Below are positions 51,258-59,555 of a stretch of 64,000 nucleotides of DNA, one piece after another. Within the stretch, counting starts at the first letter, position 1. Each line of letters begins with the position of its first letter. The position numbers were made by a program, and so were the translations under genes. The stretch comes from Candidatus Borrarchaeum weybense (GTDB lineage Archaea; Asgardarchaeota; Sifarchaeia; Borrarchaeales; Borrarchaeaceae). The notes beneath the pieces were generated by a model. That model was not told the origin of the DNA. It made no database searches and saw only the letters and a list, made by a program, of their open reading frames with translations. The stretch covers positions 948,727 through 1,012,726 of the forward strand of contig JAHQJS010000004.1 in NCBI GenBank assembly GCA_019057385.1, written 5' to 3'.

Positions 51258-52784
51258 ATGATGATTCAGACCATCAAACTCCGAATGTATCCTGATGAGG
51301 CACAAGAATATCAACTCCATGAAATCTTTACCATCTATAACCGGGTGAAACGCATTGGTTACAACCTGCTGTTTCATAACGAGGACTACATGGTAGAGCG
51401 CTTCGATGAGGGTAAAACCATCCAACAGTGTTTGATGAGTCTGTGCCACAATAACCCTTATGTCAATACTATCTTGATTGACAACAAGGCGCAACTGGAA
51501 TCACAAAAGACGTGGCTGGAAAAACGACGCACACGCATGACACAGCAGCTACAAGTCATCATCAAGAAAATCAAAACAATAAAAGAGAAAGATACACATG
51601 ACAGACGGTTGAAGGGCTTATACGCCCGTAGATCCTCAATAATGGCTAAACTGCGCAATTTACACCTCGAACCTGTGGTATTTGGCACTAAGAAATTATT
51701 CAGAGACAGAATACGCGGCAACATAAGTAGGGAAGAGTTCAGGATACGACGGGATTCTTCTTTCAGTTGCATTGGAAAGCAACAGGGAAAAAACCTGAAC
51801 ATTAAAGTATTGCCCAGAAAAACCGTCAAGATACGCACCTTTTCCAAGCAAAAAGGATGCAAATGGCTGATCATTTCCCTTTCCGTAAACTCTGTGCAGG
51901 AAAAATGGTTTCAAGATATTTTTAATTCCGACAAATACACGGTGACCGTGAAACGGAAGTTTTTCAAGGGGACGGTGCGTTATTTTGTCCATGTTTCTTA
52001 TGAAATTCCAGAACCTGTACCACGTTGTGGCTACGAACATGGTGCCATCGGATTAGATTTCAACTATAATTTTGTTGCCCTGACCAATGTCGATCAACAT
52101 GGTACATTACTCTCTTATCATACCATTTCGTTTTGCAACCTCCACAGCTATCGAACAAATAAACGTAGCGATTACATCTCTTATAAGATGGATAAAGTCG
52201 TCAATTATTGCATCAATAAGGGCAAGGGCATCGTGGTCGAGGACTTACAATTCGGCCAAGAGTTTTACTATAATAAAAAACGCAACCGAAAATTCAGCAA
52301 TATGAAGACCACTGCCTTGCAGCTGTTAGAGAGAAAATGCAAAAAGCGAGGTGTGTCCTTTCGAAAGGTATTTCCTGGATATACCTCCATAATCGGGAGG
52401 TATAAGTATTCAGGATTACATAATTTGTCAACACATCACTTAGCAAGTTATGTAATAGCTCGAAGGGGTTTAGGTTTCAGGGAAGTCATTCCAGCCATCT
52501 ACGATTGGGTGTCCTCACAAGTCGGGGAGTTCATAGAACCCCGTTTGAAACAGGATAGTCCTTACCGTAGATGGTCGATGATCCATGACCTCTTCAAGCA
52601 CAGTGGGATAACTTCCTTCAAGGCTGCCGAAATACTTAAAAAAACAGTATTAATGAGGCATGTTTTGCACTCGGTGACGAGCGCACAGCCCGATAACCTT
52701 AAGGCTGGTTCTTCCTTCTTGAAAGCAGGGAGAATTGATGATTATTATAAAGTGTGGAATTTTATAACTAATCCCACATTATAA
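51258..52784 (+). CDS. TnpB-related protein with non-canonical RuvC-III and no zinc finger
   Basis: QTIKLRMYP, GLDFN (RuvC-I), VVEDL (RuvC-II), V.PGYTS.IG..KY, HHLASYVIARRG in place of the RuvC-III Asp motif. Confidence 0.8.
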   Translation: MMIQTIKLRMYPDEAQEYQLHEIFTIYNRVKRIGYNLLFHNEDYMVERFDEGKTIQQCLMSLCHNNPYVNTILIDNKAQLESQKTWLEKRRTRMTQQLQVIIKKIKTIKEKDTHDRRLKGLYARRSSIMAKLRNLHLEPVVFGTKKLFRDRIRGNISREEFRIRRDSSFSCIGKQQGKNLNIKVLPRKTVKIRTFSKQKGCKWLIISLSVNSVQEKWFQDIFNSDKYTVTVKRKFFKGTVRYFVHVSYEIPEPVPRCGYEHGAIGLDFNYNFVALTNVDQHGTLLSYHTISFCNLHSYRTNKRSDYISYKMDKVVNYCINKGKGIVVEDLQFGQEFYYNKKRNRKFSNMKTTALQLLERKCKKRGVSFRKVFPGYTSIIGRYKYSGLHNLSTHHLASYVIARRGLGFREVIPAIYDWVSSQVGEFIEPRLKQDSPYRRWSMIHDLFKHSGITSFKAAEILKKTVLMRHVLHSVTSAQPDNLKAGSSFLKAGRIDDYYKVWNFITNPTL

Positions 52785-52918: not shown

Positions 52919-53326
52919 GTGAATAAACAAACTGATTTACAAAATAATAAGGAACTTTATGGCGTTTTCAATGAATTAAGGAACTATTTAGCCGGTATGG
53001 CTGCTGGTATGACTCGTGATGAAAGTTTAATACAAGAATTGATACCTCTTCTCTTTTGTAAAATTTATACTGAAAAAAATATAGATTTGAAAGATAAGTT
53101 TCGAGCAGAATCAAAAGAATCAGCCGGTGTTATAAAAAGGCGGATTTCAGCAATTTTCAAAATGGTTAAGAAAGAATTTGAGGATATTTTTGAAGAAGAG
53201 GAAAAAATTGATCTAAAGGCGGAATCAGTTAAGTTCATTGTCAGCAAGCTGCAAAATCATGATCTAACGACGGTGGATCAAGATGCAATCGGAAATCTGT
53301 TTGAATCCTTCCTTGGTCGATCGTAG
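52919..53326 (+). pseudogene. N-terminal fragment of an N6-adenine MTase (HsdM-like) paralog
   Basis: GMTRDESLIQELIPLLFCKIY...DAIGNLFESFLG aligns to 56093..58666; stops about five codons before GQFFTP. Confidence 0.85.
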
Positions 53327-53595
53327 CCAAAGATACCAATTTGCTCGTAGCTAAAACAACTAATACTGATACTAAAATGTTACTCAAGCAGATTTGATTG
53401 TTTTGTATAATTAGTAGATGGTATCTAGTGTACAACTGATTTTCTCATTATTTACAAACAACTAAAATCTCAAATAACGTCTATAAACCACGAAAATTTA
53501 CTATCATACTTTTACTGTGGTCTCTCTCTAGTAAAATATATTATATTTCATAATTTTTCTAGAGAGCATGTATGTATTCTATCGAGGTTGTAAAC

Positions 53596-54408
53596 ATGAA
53601 ACAAACAAAAAAACAGATCGTGGTTCGTGCCTATACTCCAATAGCTAAACCTCATAATGTGTCTATTCAAAAAAATTCCACTATGCTTCTTCTAGGTGAA
53701 ATTTCTTATGAAAGTGGTTCGAAAGCATTCAATACAAAACTGTATTACATTAAAGGGGTACGCGGAATGTTGAGGCATGCCGCCATGTCTCTTGCTCAAG
53801 ATTGTGGTATAGAAGTCTGCCATTCCAGTGAAAAAACTGAGCTCAAAGATGGGACTCAACTCGTTCCTTCTGGTTTCCATCCTCTTGGCTCATGTGATCC
53901 TCCTTGTATTCTCCGAAGAATCTTTGGCACCTTCCGCGAAGAATCCTCAATCTCCGTCTTAGTTGATCCTATTGCTTCGATAAAGCATAAAGAATACACT
54001 ACTGAGTTACCTGCTCAAAAAGTCCATATCGCCACTGAAAATAGGATAGCCCTTACTTATGATAGAACGGCTATTCAAGATTTTCGTGAAAGCTATTTCA
54101 GCGGGTATTTTAACTTCGTAATCGACATCACAAATTTAACCGATGATGAGATCAAGTTCATCGTGGAATCGTTGCTCTACATCGAAACACTTGGCAGTGG
54201 CAAAAATGCTGGTTATGGATATATCAAGATTCTAGAGGTCGAAATCCAGAATGTACATGTTTTGCGAAACATCACGATGGATAACGGAGTATATAAGATC
54301 ATTGAAGAAATCGAAGTAAAACCGATACTACTTGAAAACATCGAAGAATGGAGAAACGCGTATATGAGAGAAAATCTGATAAAAATTGAACAACAACACT
54401 CCACTTGA
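53596..54408 (+). CDS. Cas7/Csm3-like RAMP protein
   Basis: First strand RAYTP, KGVRGMLRH helix, C...C..PC..RRIFG, ENRI thumb, G-rich loop LGSGKNAGYG; GAGGT RBS. Confidence 0.85.
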   Translation: MKQTKKQIVVRAYTPIAKPHNVSIQKNSTMLLLGEISYESGSKAFNTKLYYIKGVRGMLRHAAMSLAQDCGIEVCHSSEKTELKDGTQLVPSGFHPLGSCDPPCILRRIFGTFREESSISVLVDPIASIKHKEYTTELPAQKVHIATENRIALTYDRTAIQDFRESYFSGYFNFVIDITNLTDDEIKFIVESLLYIETLGSGKNAGYGYIKILEVEIQNVHVLRNITMDNGVYKIIEEIEVKPILLENIEEWRNAYMRENLIKIEQQHST

Positions 54409-54665
54409 TTAGTTGTGAAAGGGCGTGAGAAATAATGGAGATTTTCTCTTCTAAGACGCTCATCGCCCGCTTTTTCTCAGCTAAGACGGAATACTTCTTG
54501 TAATCTGCAAGAAGCACGTTCTTATGTGAGAGACAGTTATTATAGAGGTCCCAAACCTCGGTTGATGGGGAAAGAATGTCCGGCAGAGGGATGAATAAAA
54601 CGATAACTACTTTACCAAAAGGGTTACAAAAGCCGTTACTTTCCCATGGTCTTATATCTCCCGTT
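54409..54665 (+). ncRNA. Putative structured guide-like RNA, copy A (scaffold 54409-54610 plus variable 3' segment)
   Basis: Multi-hairpin intergenic region with motif string shared with 55537-55698. Confidence 0.7.
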
Positions 54666-54708
54666 TAAATGACAAAAAATTTAAAACATCCTATAGTGGT
54701 GCTGAAAA

Positions 54709-55512
54709 ATGCCAAAAAGATGGTTTAAATTATCTGGTGTAACTAAAACTCCAGTGATCACGAAAAAAAGACATTTTTTTCATAAATTTGGGGTAATTAC
54801 CATTAATGGTAGTCCTAGAGTGTTCGGTAAACTTACGAAAGGTGAGAGACGCGCTCCTATGACCTTTAGGGCATGGCATGGAACAGTAGAGTTTATTATT
54901 CCTCACTCAAAACTCGAACCAGCGCTCGCTATTGAAAGTATCGGGAGATATACCCATGAAGGGATGGGGCAAATACTGTGGACAAGTGTAAAACAACTCC
55001 CCAAAAGACCTCTCTATACTCCAAAAAAAATTAGGATTCGTAAAATGCTCCCAAAACTTTCAGATACATGGGAAAAACTAATGATCGCCATGTTACTACA
55101 TGATTTCGTGAATACTGAAAAACATTCCAGCAAAATTTACTCTGAGGTTACTATCGTTGATGACGACGTATATAATCTAGCGAAAAATCATCATAATTAC
55201 GAGATGGATGAAAGGGAATTGCCCCTCCTCGCTACCCTCCAACATTATGACCAAGTTTCTTCCTCAATTTCTCGAAAGTTTAGGTGGTCTACCTCCTCAC
55301 GTTATCGTGCAGATATTCAAGAGAAAATAGATTTTGATACACTAAAAAGAGAGATAGAATTGAGAAAACATTCTCTTTATGCTCTTTATAGCTTCATCTA
55401 TAAGTCTCAAGTACTTAATGAGATCAATGAGGCAATAGAATTTGGTTTCTCTTCTTTAAAAAACCATCTTCTTCTGATGGTCAATCTCTTTCTTGATGAC
55501 CTTTATGGATGA
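54709..55512 (+). CDS. Compact Cas5-like RAMP fused to HD nuclease domain
   Basis: VTKTPVI first strand, IGRYTHEGMG G-rich loop, then LLHDF...HH...YDQ..S HD pattern. Confidence 0.75.
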   Translation: MPKRWFKLSGVTKTPVITKKRHFFHKFGVITINGSPRVFGKLTKGERRAPMTFRAWHGTVEFIIPHSKLEPALAIESIGRYTHEGMGQILWTSVKQLPKRPLYTPKKIRIRKMLPKLSDTWEKLMIAMLLHDFVNTEKHSSKIYSEVTIVDDDVYNLAKNHHNYEMDERELPLLATLQHYDQVSSSISRKFRWSTSSRYRADIQEKIDFDTLKREIELRKHSLYALYSFIYKSQVLNEINEAIEFGFSSLKNHLLLMVNLFLDDLYG

Positions 55513-55536
55513 GTTTTTATGTCACAAGTTATGGTG

Positions 55537-55780
55537 TTGCAATCCCTCTTTACAGATAAATATACAGGATGCAAGACGGACTGTTCATCGCATATCGCGA
55601 TGAACACGTTCTTGTACATGAGACTGAACCCGAGAGGTCCCACGCCTCAGATGACGGGAATGGATGACAGGCCAAAGGACGAGAAAAGTGATAAATACGG
55701 ACACTTTTTCACGCCAAGAAACGTTGTCAGATTCGCTATTACCATTAATGATCCTAGGAATGGTAATGGCATCCTCCCTA
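55537..55780 (+). ncRNA. Putative structured guide-like RNA, copy B (scaffold to 55698 plus hsdM-like 3' segment)
   Basis: Same motif string as copy A with compensatory hairpins; followed by T-tract. Confidence 0.7.
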
Positions 55781-55794
55781 TTTTTTTATTTTTT
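55781..55794 (+). terminator. Archaeal poly-T terminator candidate
   Basis: TTTTTTTATTTTTT right after RNA copy B. Confidence 0.5.
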
Positions 55795-55803
55795 CAATAA
55801 TAG

Positions 55804-55960
55804 TTTTACATGAACCTCTCTTTTAAAAAAATGCCATTCATCCACATTATCATAGAAACTTCTAGCGAGATTACTAAGACTTGCCCAGAGCATCTATCTA
55901 TAACACACGAAAGATCAAACTTACTATAACAAAATAAACGTCAGAGGGGTTCTGGTAAAA
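55804..55960. repeat. 157-bp segment with 17-bp imperfect terminal inverted repeats (MITE-like)
   Basis: TTTTACATGAACCTCTC ... GAGGGGTTCTGGTAAAA (14/17 complementary); no clear TSD. Confidence 0.4.
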
Positions 55961-56002
55961 TGCTTCATAATTTTGAATAGTTTTGTCGGTTCCCCATACA
56001 AT

Positions 56003-56023
56003 TTTATAGATGTTGTTTGCAAA
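56003..56023. repeat. 21-bp dyad motif copy
   Basis: TTTATAGA-TGTTG-TTTGCAAA. Confidence 0.45.
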
Positions 56024-56092
56024 AAAGAACATCAAATTAGATTTCCTAGTTTTTTAACTTAAGTCAATGATTGCTCAGGTTGGTTAAGAATT

Positions 56093-58666
56093 ATGCCGAC
56101 ACGAACGAAATCAGTTGAAAAGGTTTCCTTTGCTGAGGAACGCGTCAAAGGACAGATGAGACTTATTGATTTTATTTCTGGAAGTTTAGTTGAAGCCACA
56201 CCTGAAGAGGTAGAGGCTGTTCAGGTCTTTTCTCGCAGATTGGTCGAAGAGTTTGGATATGATAAAAATCAAATCCAAACAAGACCTCAATTTAAAATCC
56301 GGGGCGCACCGTCAGGTAAACCAAAATATCCTGTTGACATAGCCGTCTTTAATGACGAAAAAAAAACCCATGGCAACTTGTTTATGATTGTCGAATGCAA
56401 ACGAAAGACTCGTCGAGATGGAGAAAAGCAACTGAAAATATATTTGGGACTATCAAGTGCTCAGATAGGAGTTTGGTTCAATGGTAGTGAGCACCTCTAC
56501 CTACAGAAGATTCTCGACAAAGAGGGAAATGTAACCTACAATTTAATTCCCACGATTCCCAAAAAAGGACAAAGAATTGAAGATATTGGCAAATACAAGC
56601 GAAAAAACCTGACGAAACCGAGTAATATAATCTCTTTGTTCAAAGATATTAAGAATCACTTATACGGAAACGTCGTAGGAATTACTCGTGATGAAGCTTT
56701 AATACAAGAAATAATGAATCTACTATTCTGCAAAATATACGATGAACTGAATACTGCTCCGGAAGATGATGTTGCTTTCAGAGTAGGAATCAATGAAGAC
56801 TCGAATCAGGTCAAGGAGAGAATCTCTGAGCTATTCAAGTTTGTGAAAATAGCATACGAGGATATCTTCGAAGAGCGAGACGAATTACGTCTTGATCCTG
56901 ACTCACTTTGTTATGTTGTTGGCGAATTGCAACCTTATAGTCTGTCAGAAGTAGATAGTAACGCAATAGGCGATGCGTTCGAGGTATTCATTGGAAAGGC
57001 GCTCAAGGGTGCCGAGGGGCAGTTTTTTACACCTCGAAATGTGGTTCGAATGGCTGTTGAGATACTTGACCCACAACCCTACGAACATATCGTTGATCCT
57101 GCATGCGGTAGCGGAGGTTTCTTAATATTTGCAATGGAACATGTGTGGCAAAAACTTAAGATTGAAGCTAAAAGAAAGAATTGGTCAACCGAAATGCTAC
57201 AGAAAAGAAAGACAGAAATTGCGAGCAAATTTTTTGGTGGAATTGACAAGGACATGTTCCTAGCAAAAGTCACAAAGGCTTACATGGCACTAATAGGTGA
57301 CGGTAGAGGCGGAATATTCTGTGAAAACTCTTTAGAATTCCCAGAAAAATGGCAGGCGACTACCCAACAAAGAATAATGCTTGGTAAATTTGATGTTCTA
57401 TTTACTAATCCTCCCTTCGGATCAAAGATCACTATCAAGAAATCATTGTATTCTCAGTTCGAGTTAAGCTTTAAATGGAATAAAAACAAAAAAACTGGTA
57501 AGTGGAAGAAGGGTAATAAACAGGCAGACAAAAGACCACCGCAAGTTCTGTTTATTGAGCGATGTTTACAATTTCTTGCTCCAAACGGAAGAATGGCAAT
57601 CGTTTTACCTGATGGTTTATTAAGCAATCCCAGCGATGGTTATATTACACAGTATATCAAGGATAATGCTGAGATCATTGGACTCGTCGATTTACCAATG
57701 AGTACTTTCTTACCTAATACACCCACGAAGACACATATTTTGTTCTTAAGAAAGAAAAAACCTGAGGGGAACTATCCAATCTTTATGGCCTACGCGAAAA
57801 CTTGTGGACATGATAAGAGAGGGAAGATCATCTATAAAGTCGGTGAAGCTGGTCAAAATGTTGTTGATGATGACATTTATGAAATATCAAAGCATTTTGC
57901 TCGCAGATATGAAAGAGTTAATAAATATGATAGGAAGGGATTTCTTGTTTATCTTGACGATTTAAAGTCAGGTATACTGTTACCGAAATATTATAATCCA
58001 GAATTGAATGAGAGATTAGAAGCGTATCGACAGACTGGTGAATATGACGTTTATTCTATAGGTGATTTAGTTAAACTGGGAAAGTTGTGGATAAGGAGAG
58101 GCCATGAAGTCGGATCTGTGAATTATGGAACTGGCGATATCCCGTTTATTCGGACTTCGGAAATATCAAATTGGGAACTAACTGCCGATCCTACTCATTG
58201 TTTAGCCGAGGATATATACGAGGAATACAAGGATCGCCAGAAACTAAAAAAAGATGATATCTTAATTATAAATGATGGTACGTACCTAATGGGTCGAACC
58301 GCGATACTTTCTGAAAATGATACAAAAATTGTTGTTCAAAGTCACATCAGAATTCTTACAGTCTTAGACCGAGAATTTATTCACCCTTATCTTTTGTTGT
58401 TCCTCTTAGGATTGAGAATTGTTCAAGAACAGATTGAGTCGAAATCCTTTAGACAAGCTACTATCTCTACTCTAGGAAACAGACTTCTTGAAATCAGAAT
58501 CCCACTACCAAAAGATGAAAAAGTAAGAAAAGAAATTGTTGAGCAAGTTTCTAACATAGTTGAGAAGCGCTCGATGCTAAGACATAAGGCGATGAATATT
58601 GAATTCAATGGAACATCAGAGAGTGTTATGGGTATAAAAAACAAGGCAACCTTGGGAAATCTATAG
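56093..58666 (+). CDS. Single-chain restriction-modification enzyme (HsdR-N-like nuclease + N6-MTase + specificity domain; type IIG/IIB-like)
   Basis: PEE...Q, PVDIAV...IVECK nuclease; GQFFTP, DPACGSGG, NPPF; C-terminal TRD (IPFIRTSEI, DDILI, I.IPLP). Confidence 0.92.
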   Translation: MPTRTKSVEKVSFAEERVKGQMRLIDFISGSLVEATPEEVEAVQVFSRRLVEEFGYDKNQIQTRPQFKIRGAPSGKPKYPVDIAVFNDEKKTHGNLFMIVECKRKTRRDGEKQLKIYLGLSSAQIGVWFNGSEHLYLQKILDKEGNVTYNLIPTIPKKGQRIEDIGKYKRKNLTKPSNIISLFKDIKNHLYGNVVGITRDEALIQEIMNLLFCKIYDELNTAPEDDVAFRVGINEDSNQVKERISELFKFVKIAYEDIFEERDELRLDPDSLCYVVGELQPYSLSEVDSNAIGDAFEVFIGKALKGAEGQFFTPRNVVRMAVEILDPQPYEHIVDPACGSGGFLIFAMEHVWQKLKIEAKRKNWSTEMLQKRKTEIASKFFGGIDKDMFLAKVTKAYMALIGDGRGGIFCENSLEFPEKWQATTQQRIMLGKFDVLFTNPPFGSKITIKKSLYSQFELSFKWNKNKKTGKWKKGNKQADKRPPQVLFIERCLQFLAPNGRMAIVLPDGLLSNPSDGYITQYIKDNAEIIGLVDLPMSTFLPNTPTKTHILFLRKKKPEGNYPIFMAYAKTCGHDKRGKIIYKVGEAGQNVVDDDIYEISKHFARRYERVNKYDRKGFLVYLDDLKSGILLPKYYNPELNERLEAYRQTGEYDVYSIGDLVKLGKLWIRRGHEVGSVNYGTGDIPFIRTSEISNWELTADPTHCLAEDIYEEYKDRQKLKKDDILIINDGTYLMGRTAILSENDTKIVVQSHIRILTVLDREFIHPYLLLFLLGLRIVQEQIESKSFRQATISTLGNRLLEIRIPLPKDEKVRKEIVEQVSNIVEKRSMLRHKAMNIEFNGTSESVMGIKNKATLGNL

Positions 58667-58718
58667 TACCTTAGTTGATTTTTGGTCTCTTATATATCTA
58701 AGAATATAAGTTAAAGGC

Positions 58719-59555
58719 TATAAAATCGATAAGAATGGAGATAAACAACTCGATGATGATCTTTTGCAAATAGGTAAGCGATATCATGATCTACGTCAAA
58801 ATTTTAATGAAAAATATGACCATCTAGGTTTTTTCATTGACGTACAGAATTTAAAAAAAGGAATTCTCATGCCAAAATATTACAACCCAGAAATCAAGAA
58901 TGAATTAAGGAGGCTTAAAGAAACAGGCCATTATGATTTGGTAAGTATTGGAGAGTTGGAGGGACAAAACACACTCCAGATAAGTTGTGGTCACGAGATA
59001 GGTTCTATAAATTATGGCACAGGAGATATTCCTTTCATTCGCACCTCTGAAATAAGTAACTGGGAGATTGCAGCAGATCCGACTCATTGTGTTTCAGAAG
59101 ATATCTATGAGATGTACAGAACAAAGCAGGATCTACAGAAAGACGATATTCTTATTGTAAATGATGGGACCTACTTAGTTGGTCGAACTGCAATTCTATC
59201 AGAATTTGATGTGAAAATTGTTATTCAAAGTCATTTTAGAAAAATTCGTGTTCTTGATTGGAGTGACTTGACGCCGTATCTTTTGCTTTATCTGTTAGGT
59301 TTGAGAATAGTTCAGAATCAAATAGAAGCGAAAACATTTCGCCAGGCTACTATCTCGACTCTTGGAAATAGACTGCGAGAAATCATTCTGCCTATTCCAA
59401 AGAATTCCAAACTTAAAGCAGAAATTTCTGAAAGTGTAGAACTCATCGTTGGGAAACGTGCAAAATTACGGAATCAGGCTATGCACATGCAATTTGATGA
59501 TAAAAAAGAGAATGTGATGGGACTGCAAAATAAAGCAGCCCGTGGTAATATCTAG
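58719..59555 (+). pseudogene. C-terminal (specificity-domain) fragment of a paralogous R-M gene; may be expressed from TTG 58764
   Basis: Highly similar to the C-terminal third of 56093..58666; homology extends upstream (YKIDKNGDKQLDDD) with no start codon. Confidence 0.75.

Follow-up and report, generated by a model that had tools for sequence, protein, structure and literature searches.

A flank-derived, guide-like sequence behind the scaffold RNA of an ARAMP module in Candidatus Borrarchaeum weybense

The stretch of DNA analysed here (the window) comprises 64,000 nucleotides of contig JAHQJS010000004.1 of Candidatus Borrarchaeum weybense, and all the features of the locus described below are located on its forward strand. 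A TnpB-related gene of 508 aa (51258-52784; NCBIfam guided_TnpB and TIGR01766) was inserted between a GAPDH gene and a methyltransferase gene. It belongs to a set of about 15 scattered genome copies, which share 74-84% identity and do not travel together with the RAMP modules, and it lies outside the RAMP module of this locus. The methyltransferase gene is represented by an N-terminal fragment of 135 aa (52919-53326), which has 85-88% nucleotide identity to G001:C16 and G004:C42 and terminates with ...FESFLGRS*. This fragment is adjoined by a two-gene module (53324-55698), in which each gene is followed by one copy of the same non-coding element (54480-54610 and 55569-55691), referred to as the scaffold.

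The module opens with the left junction and a putative promoter region (53324-53595), which has no nucleotide homology to the other copies, followed by a Cas7-like RAMP gene (53596-54408; 270 aa counted from the conserved ATG), scaffold A (54480-54610; nhmmer E=1e-22), which is a degenerate copy of the structured RNA, and a block (54611-54708) that, from its likeness to the blocks upstream of RAMP genes, is the putative promoter of the HD gene. The second gene (54709-55512; 267 aa) encodes a RAMP-like N-terminus fused to a putative HD-type domain, and behind it lies scaffold B (55569-55691; nhmmer E=1.5e-35), a conserved structured RNA ending in ...GACGAGAAAAGTGA. A 7-nt linker, TAAATAC (55692-55698), separates this scaffold from the point at which target homology begins. 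The proposed guide of six hexamers (55699-55734) comes next, and the end of the gene remnant (to 55755), together with a 12-bp hairpin and T-tracts, occupies 55735-55795 according to the minimum free energy (MFE) fold. As the sequence-only reading had pointed out, a methyltransferase motif is encoded right after the scaffold: ORF 55519-55800 translates as ...DKY GHFFTPRNVVRFAITINDP RNGNG... and gave a weak N6_Mtase match (E=0.013). Further downstream are an intact paralogous restriction-modification gene (56093-58666; Pfam and NCBIfam MADS2-like, PADLOC MTase_II), with a nuclease-like N-terminus, an N6 methyltransferase, and a specificity domain, and the C-terminal part of the interrupted methyltransferase gene (58719-59555). 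The specificity part of the broken paralogue thus stands directly after the intact restriction-modification gene (56093-59555). Since it is 96% identical to G004:C42, far closer than the rest of the region (87-93%), its sequence hints at a recent exchange of specificity domains.

The first protein of the module was assigned to Csm3 by PADLOC and matched the Pfam RAMPs family (E=5e-7). The best Foldseek matches of its AlphaFold model (pLDDT 83) were Cas7 subunits of types VII, IV-A, III-A, III-E, and I-D, and the modelled fold is that of Cas7. The genome (4.18 Mb) contains 11 RAMP genes, nine of them with a paired HD gene, and a tenth locus, C3a, is without one; the module paralogues share 65-79% protein identity. 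The RAMP family was found only in Asgard archaea, in 62 protein clusters whose named members belong to Promethearchaeota, Sifarchaeia, Hermodarchaeota, and Thorarchaeota, and it was present in 3 of the 40 related genomes searched. In the second protein, residues H131 D132, H161 H162, and D181 are invariant in five paralogues and the Pfam HD match (E=0.022) lies below the cut-off, which points weakly to an HD domain; the predicted model (pLDDT 54) was too poor for fold classification. Six sister loci carry, upstream of the RAMP gene, a gene of one family encoding a 1330-aa SF2 helicase, and a seventh locus has an unrelated 1337-aa ORF at the helicase place. The helicase gene is absent from the module in the window.

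The protein module is the known ARAMP, with which it shares the Cas7-like RAMP, a second, RAMP-like protein with a putative nuclease domain, the lack of a CRISPR array, the restriction to Asgard archaea, and often a large helicase (with Cas1 in the literature). No short-repeat CRISPR array was found in the window, only long-scaffold copies. ARAMP was reportedly described as a group of array-less CRISPR-like modules by Makarova et al. in the CRISPR J in 2020. In the current CRISPR classification, ARAMP, an array-less derivative of type III systems in Asgard archaea whose mechanism is called enigmatic, stands beside its haloarchaeal cousin HRAMP among array-less derivatives of unknown way of working (PMC8730458, PMC12669027). 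No guide RNA or targets for ARAMP, and no RNA-guided Cas7 element in Asgard archaea, were found in the literature; the original 2020 description may mention RNA. What differs here is the conserved scaffold RNA with a putative 3′ guide, for which targets and a 6-nt register are proposed.

The scaffold is present in about 25 copies in the genome, some of them solitary. Comparison of 48 distinct copies revealed a long-range stem, a small conserved GAGGU/GCCUC hairpin, and a 10-bp hairpin in which compensatory pairs are numerous, and the fold of scaffold B gave z=-3.45; the Rfam search returned no matching family. A small protein gene was considered and rejected, because the frames are not consistently open, several copies having stops and frameshifts, and the stems covary. 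The conserved 3′ end of the scaffold (...GGGGACGAGAAA..., window 55670-55691, in all copies) presumably resembles the 3′ end of a type III-A CRISPR repeat, which gives the crRNA 5′ tag ACGAGAAC, and with such a resemblance a type III origin would fit. Scaffold A is among the weaker full-length copies in the nhmmer search and is missing from sister strains of 94-97% identity. A 145-nt skip over it was observed in L044/L046 and in one contig of run X7, and the existence of a strain lacking it was borne out by contigs from four DNA runs. Because it has no helicase gene and its scaffold A is dispensable, the module in the window may be a crippled copy. The sequence behind scaffold A (54611-54670) was also tried as a second guide, 'guide A', and rejected as the promoter block common to the RAMP-gene upstream region: within each sister locus it has 87-97% identity to the block in front of the RAMP gene, and its sequence is also conserved from one locus to another.

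At locus C4_906, a GIY-YIG nuclease gene (G000 C4:903451-904078, G000 being this genome) has its GTG start 2 nt after one scaffold and a second scaffold copy behind it, so that it is possibly cargo or a nested homing gene between two guide units. A solitary partial scaffold (G000 C7:108012-108107) abuts the stop codon of a prolyl-tRNA synthetase gene on the opposite strand, and five further scaffolds abut the 3′ ends of convergent genes.

The sequence-only reading had proposed that the module splits an hsdM-like gene, and the uninterrupted gene was indeed found in two sister species, in G004:C42 (at least 634 aa) and G001:C16, in both cases directly beside the same GAPDH gene. The uninterrupted protein reads ...FESFLGRS-LKGSK-GQFFTPRNVVRLAIDITDP-DIGKYV..., whereas in the window the left fragment stops after GRS, LKGSK (15 nt) is gone, and 55699-55755 supplies the next 19 codons. 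On the left side, the match to the orthologue ends at 53322/53323 (query position 538 corresponds to window 53322). The upstream fragment had been said to stop about five codons short of the motif; as the orthologues continue LKGSK-GQFFTPRNVV after FESFLGRS, the loss between the left junction and 55699 amounts to exactly five codons. The homology of the remnant to the orthologues stops at 55755 and restarts at 58719, in the C-terminal third. The 749 nt of the interrupted gene that should follow 55755 are missing, and 337 nt and the intact paralogous restriction-modification gene are found in their place. The 57 nt may have been kept in place, or may have been brought in with a 5.4-kb block (53324-58718) replacing 821 nt of the gene.

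The other limit of this stretch is set by the module itself. Its nucleotide homology to nine close paralogues in the genome ends at window 55693-55698, and therefore the stretch begins right after the scaffold; the match to a tenth, distant module copy is confined to the RAMP gene. The contigs of the four DNA runs showed many different tails behind 55693-55695; none of them joined the two sides across the module or offered an empty allele that could be used. In sister strains (94-97% identity) the insertion is shared and none of the 57 nt differs. These results revealed that 55699-55755 is the continuation of the methyltransferase gene interrupted by the module.

Comparison with the uninterrupted alleles showed that this continuation has been altered in a regular manner. 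Divided into hexamers, its first 36 bases read GGACAC TTTTTC ACGCCA AGAAAC GTTGTC AGATTC in the window, against GGACAG TTTTTT ACACCA AGAAAT GTTGTG AGATTA in the ancestral allele. Outside the sixth positions, 29 of the 30 bases agree with both the G004 and the G001 allele; five of the six sixth positions are changed, all of them to C. Over the whole remnant there are ten differences from the G004 allele (positions 6, 12, 15, 24, 30, 36, 43, 44, 50, and 57). At positions 6, 12, 24, 30, and 36 the window has C throughout; the corresponding bases are G, T, T, G, A in the G004 allele, A, T, T, G, A in that of G001, and G, T, T, T, G in the paralogue. Two of these changes to C alter the protein, from Gln to His and from Leu to Phe, and the empty alleles have CAG/CAA for Gln; an empty allele already carrying the same Cs and the His codon, which the sequence-only reading had envisaged, along with a transcript ending before 55699, as the sign of passive flanking DNA, was thus not what we found. 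Against the intact paralogue (57017-57058), our recount reproduced the earlier figures of 28 matches at 35 non-sixth positions and one at seven sixth positions, that is, 13 mismatches in 42.

The 405-nt left fragment of the same gene served as a control. Only 7 of its 48 differences (15%) give C in the window, and no 36-nt stretch of it has five differences in one mod-6 phase, whereas the remnant has five, all C. Gene conversion from another paralogue was tried as a source of the Cs and rejected, because the tails of this genome have no second copy within it. Behind the 36 bases, a GA-to-AC change at remnant positions 43-44 creates two pairs of the 12-bp hairpin (55735-55746 / 55759-55770) of the MFE fold, and T-tracts follow from 55781, so that hairpin and T-tract would form a terminator-like 3′ end of the predicted RNA. 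To judge from these base changes, the first 36 bases seem to have been reshaped into a guide of CRISPR type, one that would still recognise the uninterrupted gene.

For the six-base register, 14 pairs of guide and target, drawn from this genome, from sister species, and from metagenomes, were compared over positions 8-49 behind the scaffold, numbered from the base that follows its conserved ...GT(G/C)A end (GTSA anchor). In every pair the target homology starts at +7 to +12 after this anchor, mostly at +8/+9, and the 7-nt linker at 55692-55698 is part of the element, not of the target. Every sixth base (13, 19, 25, ...) was mismatched in 31 of 89 cases (35%), compared with 7% in the remaining five phases (Fisher p=4e-11, or p=1.7e-8 when the pair of the window is left out), and the bias also held in a comparison with the one phase of equal codon position (p=0.003). 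Further downstream, at 56-320 nt, there was no period of six, only the ordinary period of three of coding DNA, and the mismatch rate at wobble sites was 12-14%. As 35% exceeds this rate, the sixth sites seem to have been actively changed, not merely relaxed. The guide base at the mismatched sixth sites was C in 17 cases, A in 8, T in 6, and G in none, and C was enriched at the sixth phase in 17 tails of this genome (shuffle test p=5e-5; without the window and with the phase fixed beforehand, p=4.5e-4). No obvious C periodicity was seen in the tails of the sister species, the flank-type tails C6_564243 and L070 have no sixth-base signature, and by eye no PAM-like motif was evident upstream of seven targets. 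The extra unit of locus C5_120, which needed three gaps against its own flank, was left out of the pair set, and G004:C54, an orthologous decayed scaffold with the same flank and no guide-target pair, was left out of the statistics. From this pattern we infer that the sixth positions of the guide would be free of pairing constraint, in a 6-nt register of the Cas7 type.

If the remnant is a guide taken from the flank, other copies might carry 3′ segments matching their own insertion sites, and such matches are present, for example in G002:C6, G004:C95, and C4_421. The site of the G002:C6 module is empty in this genome (C6:557713/557729), 14 nt were lost upon insertion, and the flank begins at +9. 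In the flank-type copies L033, L075, and L076 the flank starts at +8, and in G004:C21, L075, L076, and L070 the scaffold runs directly into DNA that is contiguous in G000. The guide of the C4_421 module, located 5′ of its own terminator, joins 8 nt from the left side and 24 nt from the right side of one junction, which is uninterrupted in G002:C146 and G004:C57. The G004:C95 module, an insertion of 2.6 kb at a site that is empty in G000, is bordered left and right by the 7-bp sequence TCATTAA. Its guide matches, in reverse complement and at 27 of 28 positions, a stretch lying 11-38 nt to the left of where the module is inserted, and in the carrier this target stretch has 10 changes in 25 nt against 94% identity overall. 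G004:C9 has three tandem scaffold units; of their guides, two find a match in G000, one at C5:332707-332749 within the 16S rRNA gene and the other at C5:351144-351104, in front of a gene for a deacetylase. Exactly at these two guide sites, the G004 contigs C13 (inside the 16S gene) and C79 lose synteny with G000. The geometry thus differs among copies, from a direct flank to a junction-spanning guide, an inverted copy to the left, or a duplicate a few hundred nt downstream, and because of this variation no one simple mechanism yet accounts for the origin of the guides.

The DNA behind these two points has no counterpart in G000 and extends over at least 48 kb in G004:C13:23589-71960 and at least 18.6 kb in G004:C79:23358-41976. 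Nearly all the genes of these foreign blocks (L057, L060, L061; L058, L062) lie on one strand, and two PCNA homologues and a TFIIB-like protein are among their products. Integration of one or two large mobile elements or viruses is their probable origin. The 16S rRNA gene itself (L038:2361-5000; G000 C5:332567-335206) spans 2640 nt against a 1478-position model, and accordingly contains about 1.1 kb of insertions, among them a 39-nt insert near L038:2612-2650; an ORF of 265 aa inside it (L038:3750-4547) gave no Pfam match. These insertions may be rRNA introns.

We consider it likely that 55699-55734 acts as the guide of an RNA-guided module which, like TnpB, is directed against the empty allele and would serve homing or retention. 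A flank captured as guide had been the first of three options offered by the sequence-only reading, and the own-site segments of other copies and the 6-nt register both favour it. The Cas7 fold of the RAMP, the covariation in the scaffold RNA, and the hairpin and T-tract behind the guide likewise speak for this reading. One transcript would comprise the scaffold of about 125 nt, the 7-nt linker, 36 nt of the interrupted gene, the hairpin, and the T-tract. The RAMP-HD protein would hold the scaffold, and about six Cas7 subunits would line the 36-nt guide with every sixth base flipped out, as class 1 CRISPR complexes flip out every sixth guide base. Pairing of the guide with an uninterrupted allele of the methyltransferase gene would bring the complex to the empty site, where it would act on DNA rather than RNA. 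The HD nuclease would cut there, aided in complete loci by the large helicase, and repair from the occupied copy would allow the element to be copied or retained, as with TnpB and IscB.

Among the rival explanations, RNA-guided integration in place of nuclease homing fares best, and we still regard it as rather unlikely. The scaffold-guide RNA would mark an attachment site at which an integrase inserts the element or a larger island, in the manner of CRISPR-associated transposons (CAST), whose homing spacers on Tn7-like elements likewise point to their own attachment sites. Large insertions at guide sites fit this well: C4_421 stands at the right end of an island of about 28 kb bounded by a repeat of the 3′ part of the target gene, and the G004:C9 guides mark the borders of the two blocks of foreign DNA described above. 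So do the 14-15 nt of target lost in two independent insertions and the 7-bp duplication in one. The integrase could be the Cas1-like part reported for the ARAMP helicase fusion, most ARAMPs including a distinct Cas1 (PMC8730458). However, searches of Pfam, PDB sequences, and the Atlas found no match to a Cas1 domain in the 1330-aa helicase of the sister loci, no Cas1 is present in the window, and the module there is devoid of the helicase gene itself. The insertions lie within or at the edge of the target, not at a fixed distance, whereas CAST inserts about 50 bp downstream; no Tn7-like transposition genes were seen among the conserved neighbours of the module. Moreover, the putative HD nuclease is conserved across the modules that have an HD gene.

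That the 57 nt are merely left-over flank of the split gene, with a pattern arisen by chance, is highly improbable. The overall divergence of 10/57 is similar to the 12-15% of the left fragment, and some other flanks are without the signature. Mere decay, the third option of the sequence-only reading, is nevertheless contradicted by changes that are both directed and periodic: five of six sixth positions went to C from different bases, the phase bias recurs in the 13 other pairs, and two further changes build the hairpin of a stretch that is identical in the sister strains. The sequence 55699-55755 is most probably not a passive remnant.

There is very little to recommend a cis-antisense or regulatory RNA, in which read-through from the scaffold into neighbouring genes would modulate their expression. 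Six tails of the genome do run antisense into the 3′ ends of convergent genes, including those for ProRS, a HerA-like protein, a response regulator, a glycosyltransferase, and a deacetylase-like protein. Yet the orientation is inconsistent, the guide in the window and the 16S-matching guide being sense to their genes; the junction-spanning guides have no contiguous target in their own genome; and the period-6 constraint points to a Cas7-bound guide. Hardly any weight attaches to an anti-defence role, the remaining option of the sequence-only reading, in which the guide would aim at a conserved motif of restriction-modification methyltransferases generally. The conserved FFTPRNVV motif does fall within the guide, and the intact paralogue is 1.3 kb distant. 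This neighbour, however, agrees at only 24 of the 30 paired positions, with a mismatch at guide position 3 included, against 29 of 30 for the ancestral allele, and in other copies the genes matched by the guides are unrelated ones (16S rRNA, the 3′ end of an aminotransferase gene, and the region upstream of a deacetylase gene). By its pairing, the guide in the window would thus recognise G004/G001-type alleles and not the neighbouring paralogue.

The favoured reading, a flank-derived guide aimed at the empty allele, places the module between two groups of known systems. For the OMEGA systems (TnpB, IscB, and IsrB with omega-RNA; IS200/IS605), a homing or retention role has been proposed (PMC10055086, PMC10690162). 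The module shares with them a long scaffold RNA at the 3′ end of the element, the adjoining flank as guide, and the empty site as target. Its effector, by contrast, is a class 1-type combination of a Cas7-like and a RAMP-HD protein, to which a helicase may be added, instead of a single RuvC/HNH protein; TnpA is absent; and some of the guides, located inside the element or in small arrays, span a junction. With the class 1 effectors (types I, III, IV, and VII), it has in common the Cas7 fold, a guide 3′ of a handle, and, to judge from the sequences, a sixth guide base free of pairing constraint. On the other side, its 'repeat' is a structured scaffold of about 125 nt in one to four units, not a short-repeat array, and its guides match chromosomal empty sites, not viruses. 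Cas6, Cas8/10, and Cas11 were not recognised, and no large subunit was seen among the conserved neighbours of the module.

Taken more broadly, ARAMP may be a class 1 counterpart of OMEGA, a proposal to which we give an even chance. It would comprise a Cas7/RAMP-HD effector on Asgard mobile elements, guided by a scaffold RNA that encodes the element's own empty site. Together with the helicase(-Cas1), this effector would drive the RNA-guided homing or integration not only of the module but also of islands that measure tens of kilobases, and the flipped sixth bases would be under active selection, C being preferred and G avoided. If confirmed, this would be the first class 1-type effector to serve a mobile element by means of a fixed guide derived from the flank, which bears on the exchange of parts between CRISPR effectors and transposons. 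A supposedly guide-less relative of CRISPR gains a candidate guide RNA and target, and with a defined scaffold-guide RNA, natural targets, and a testable register, the mechanism of ARAMP becomes open to bench experiment.
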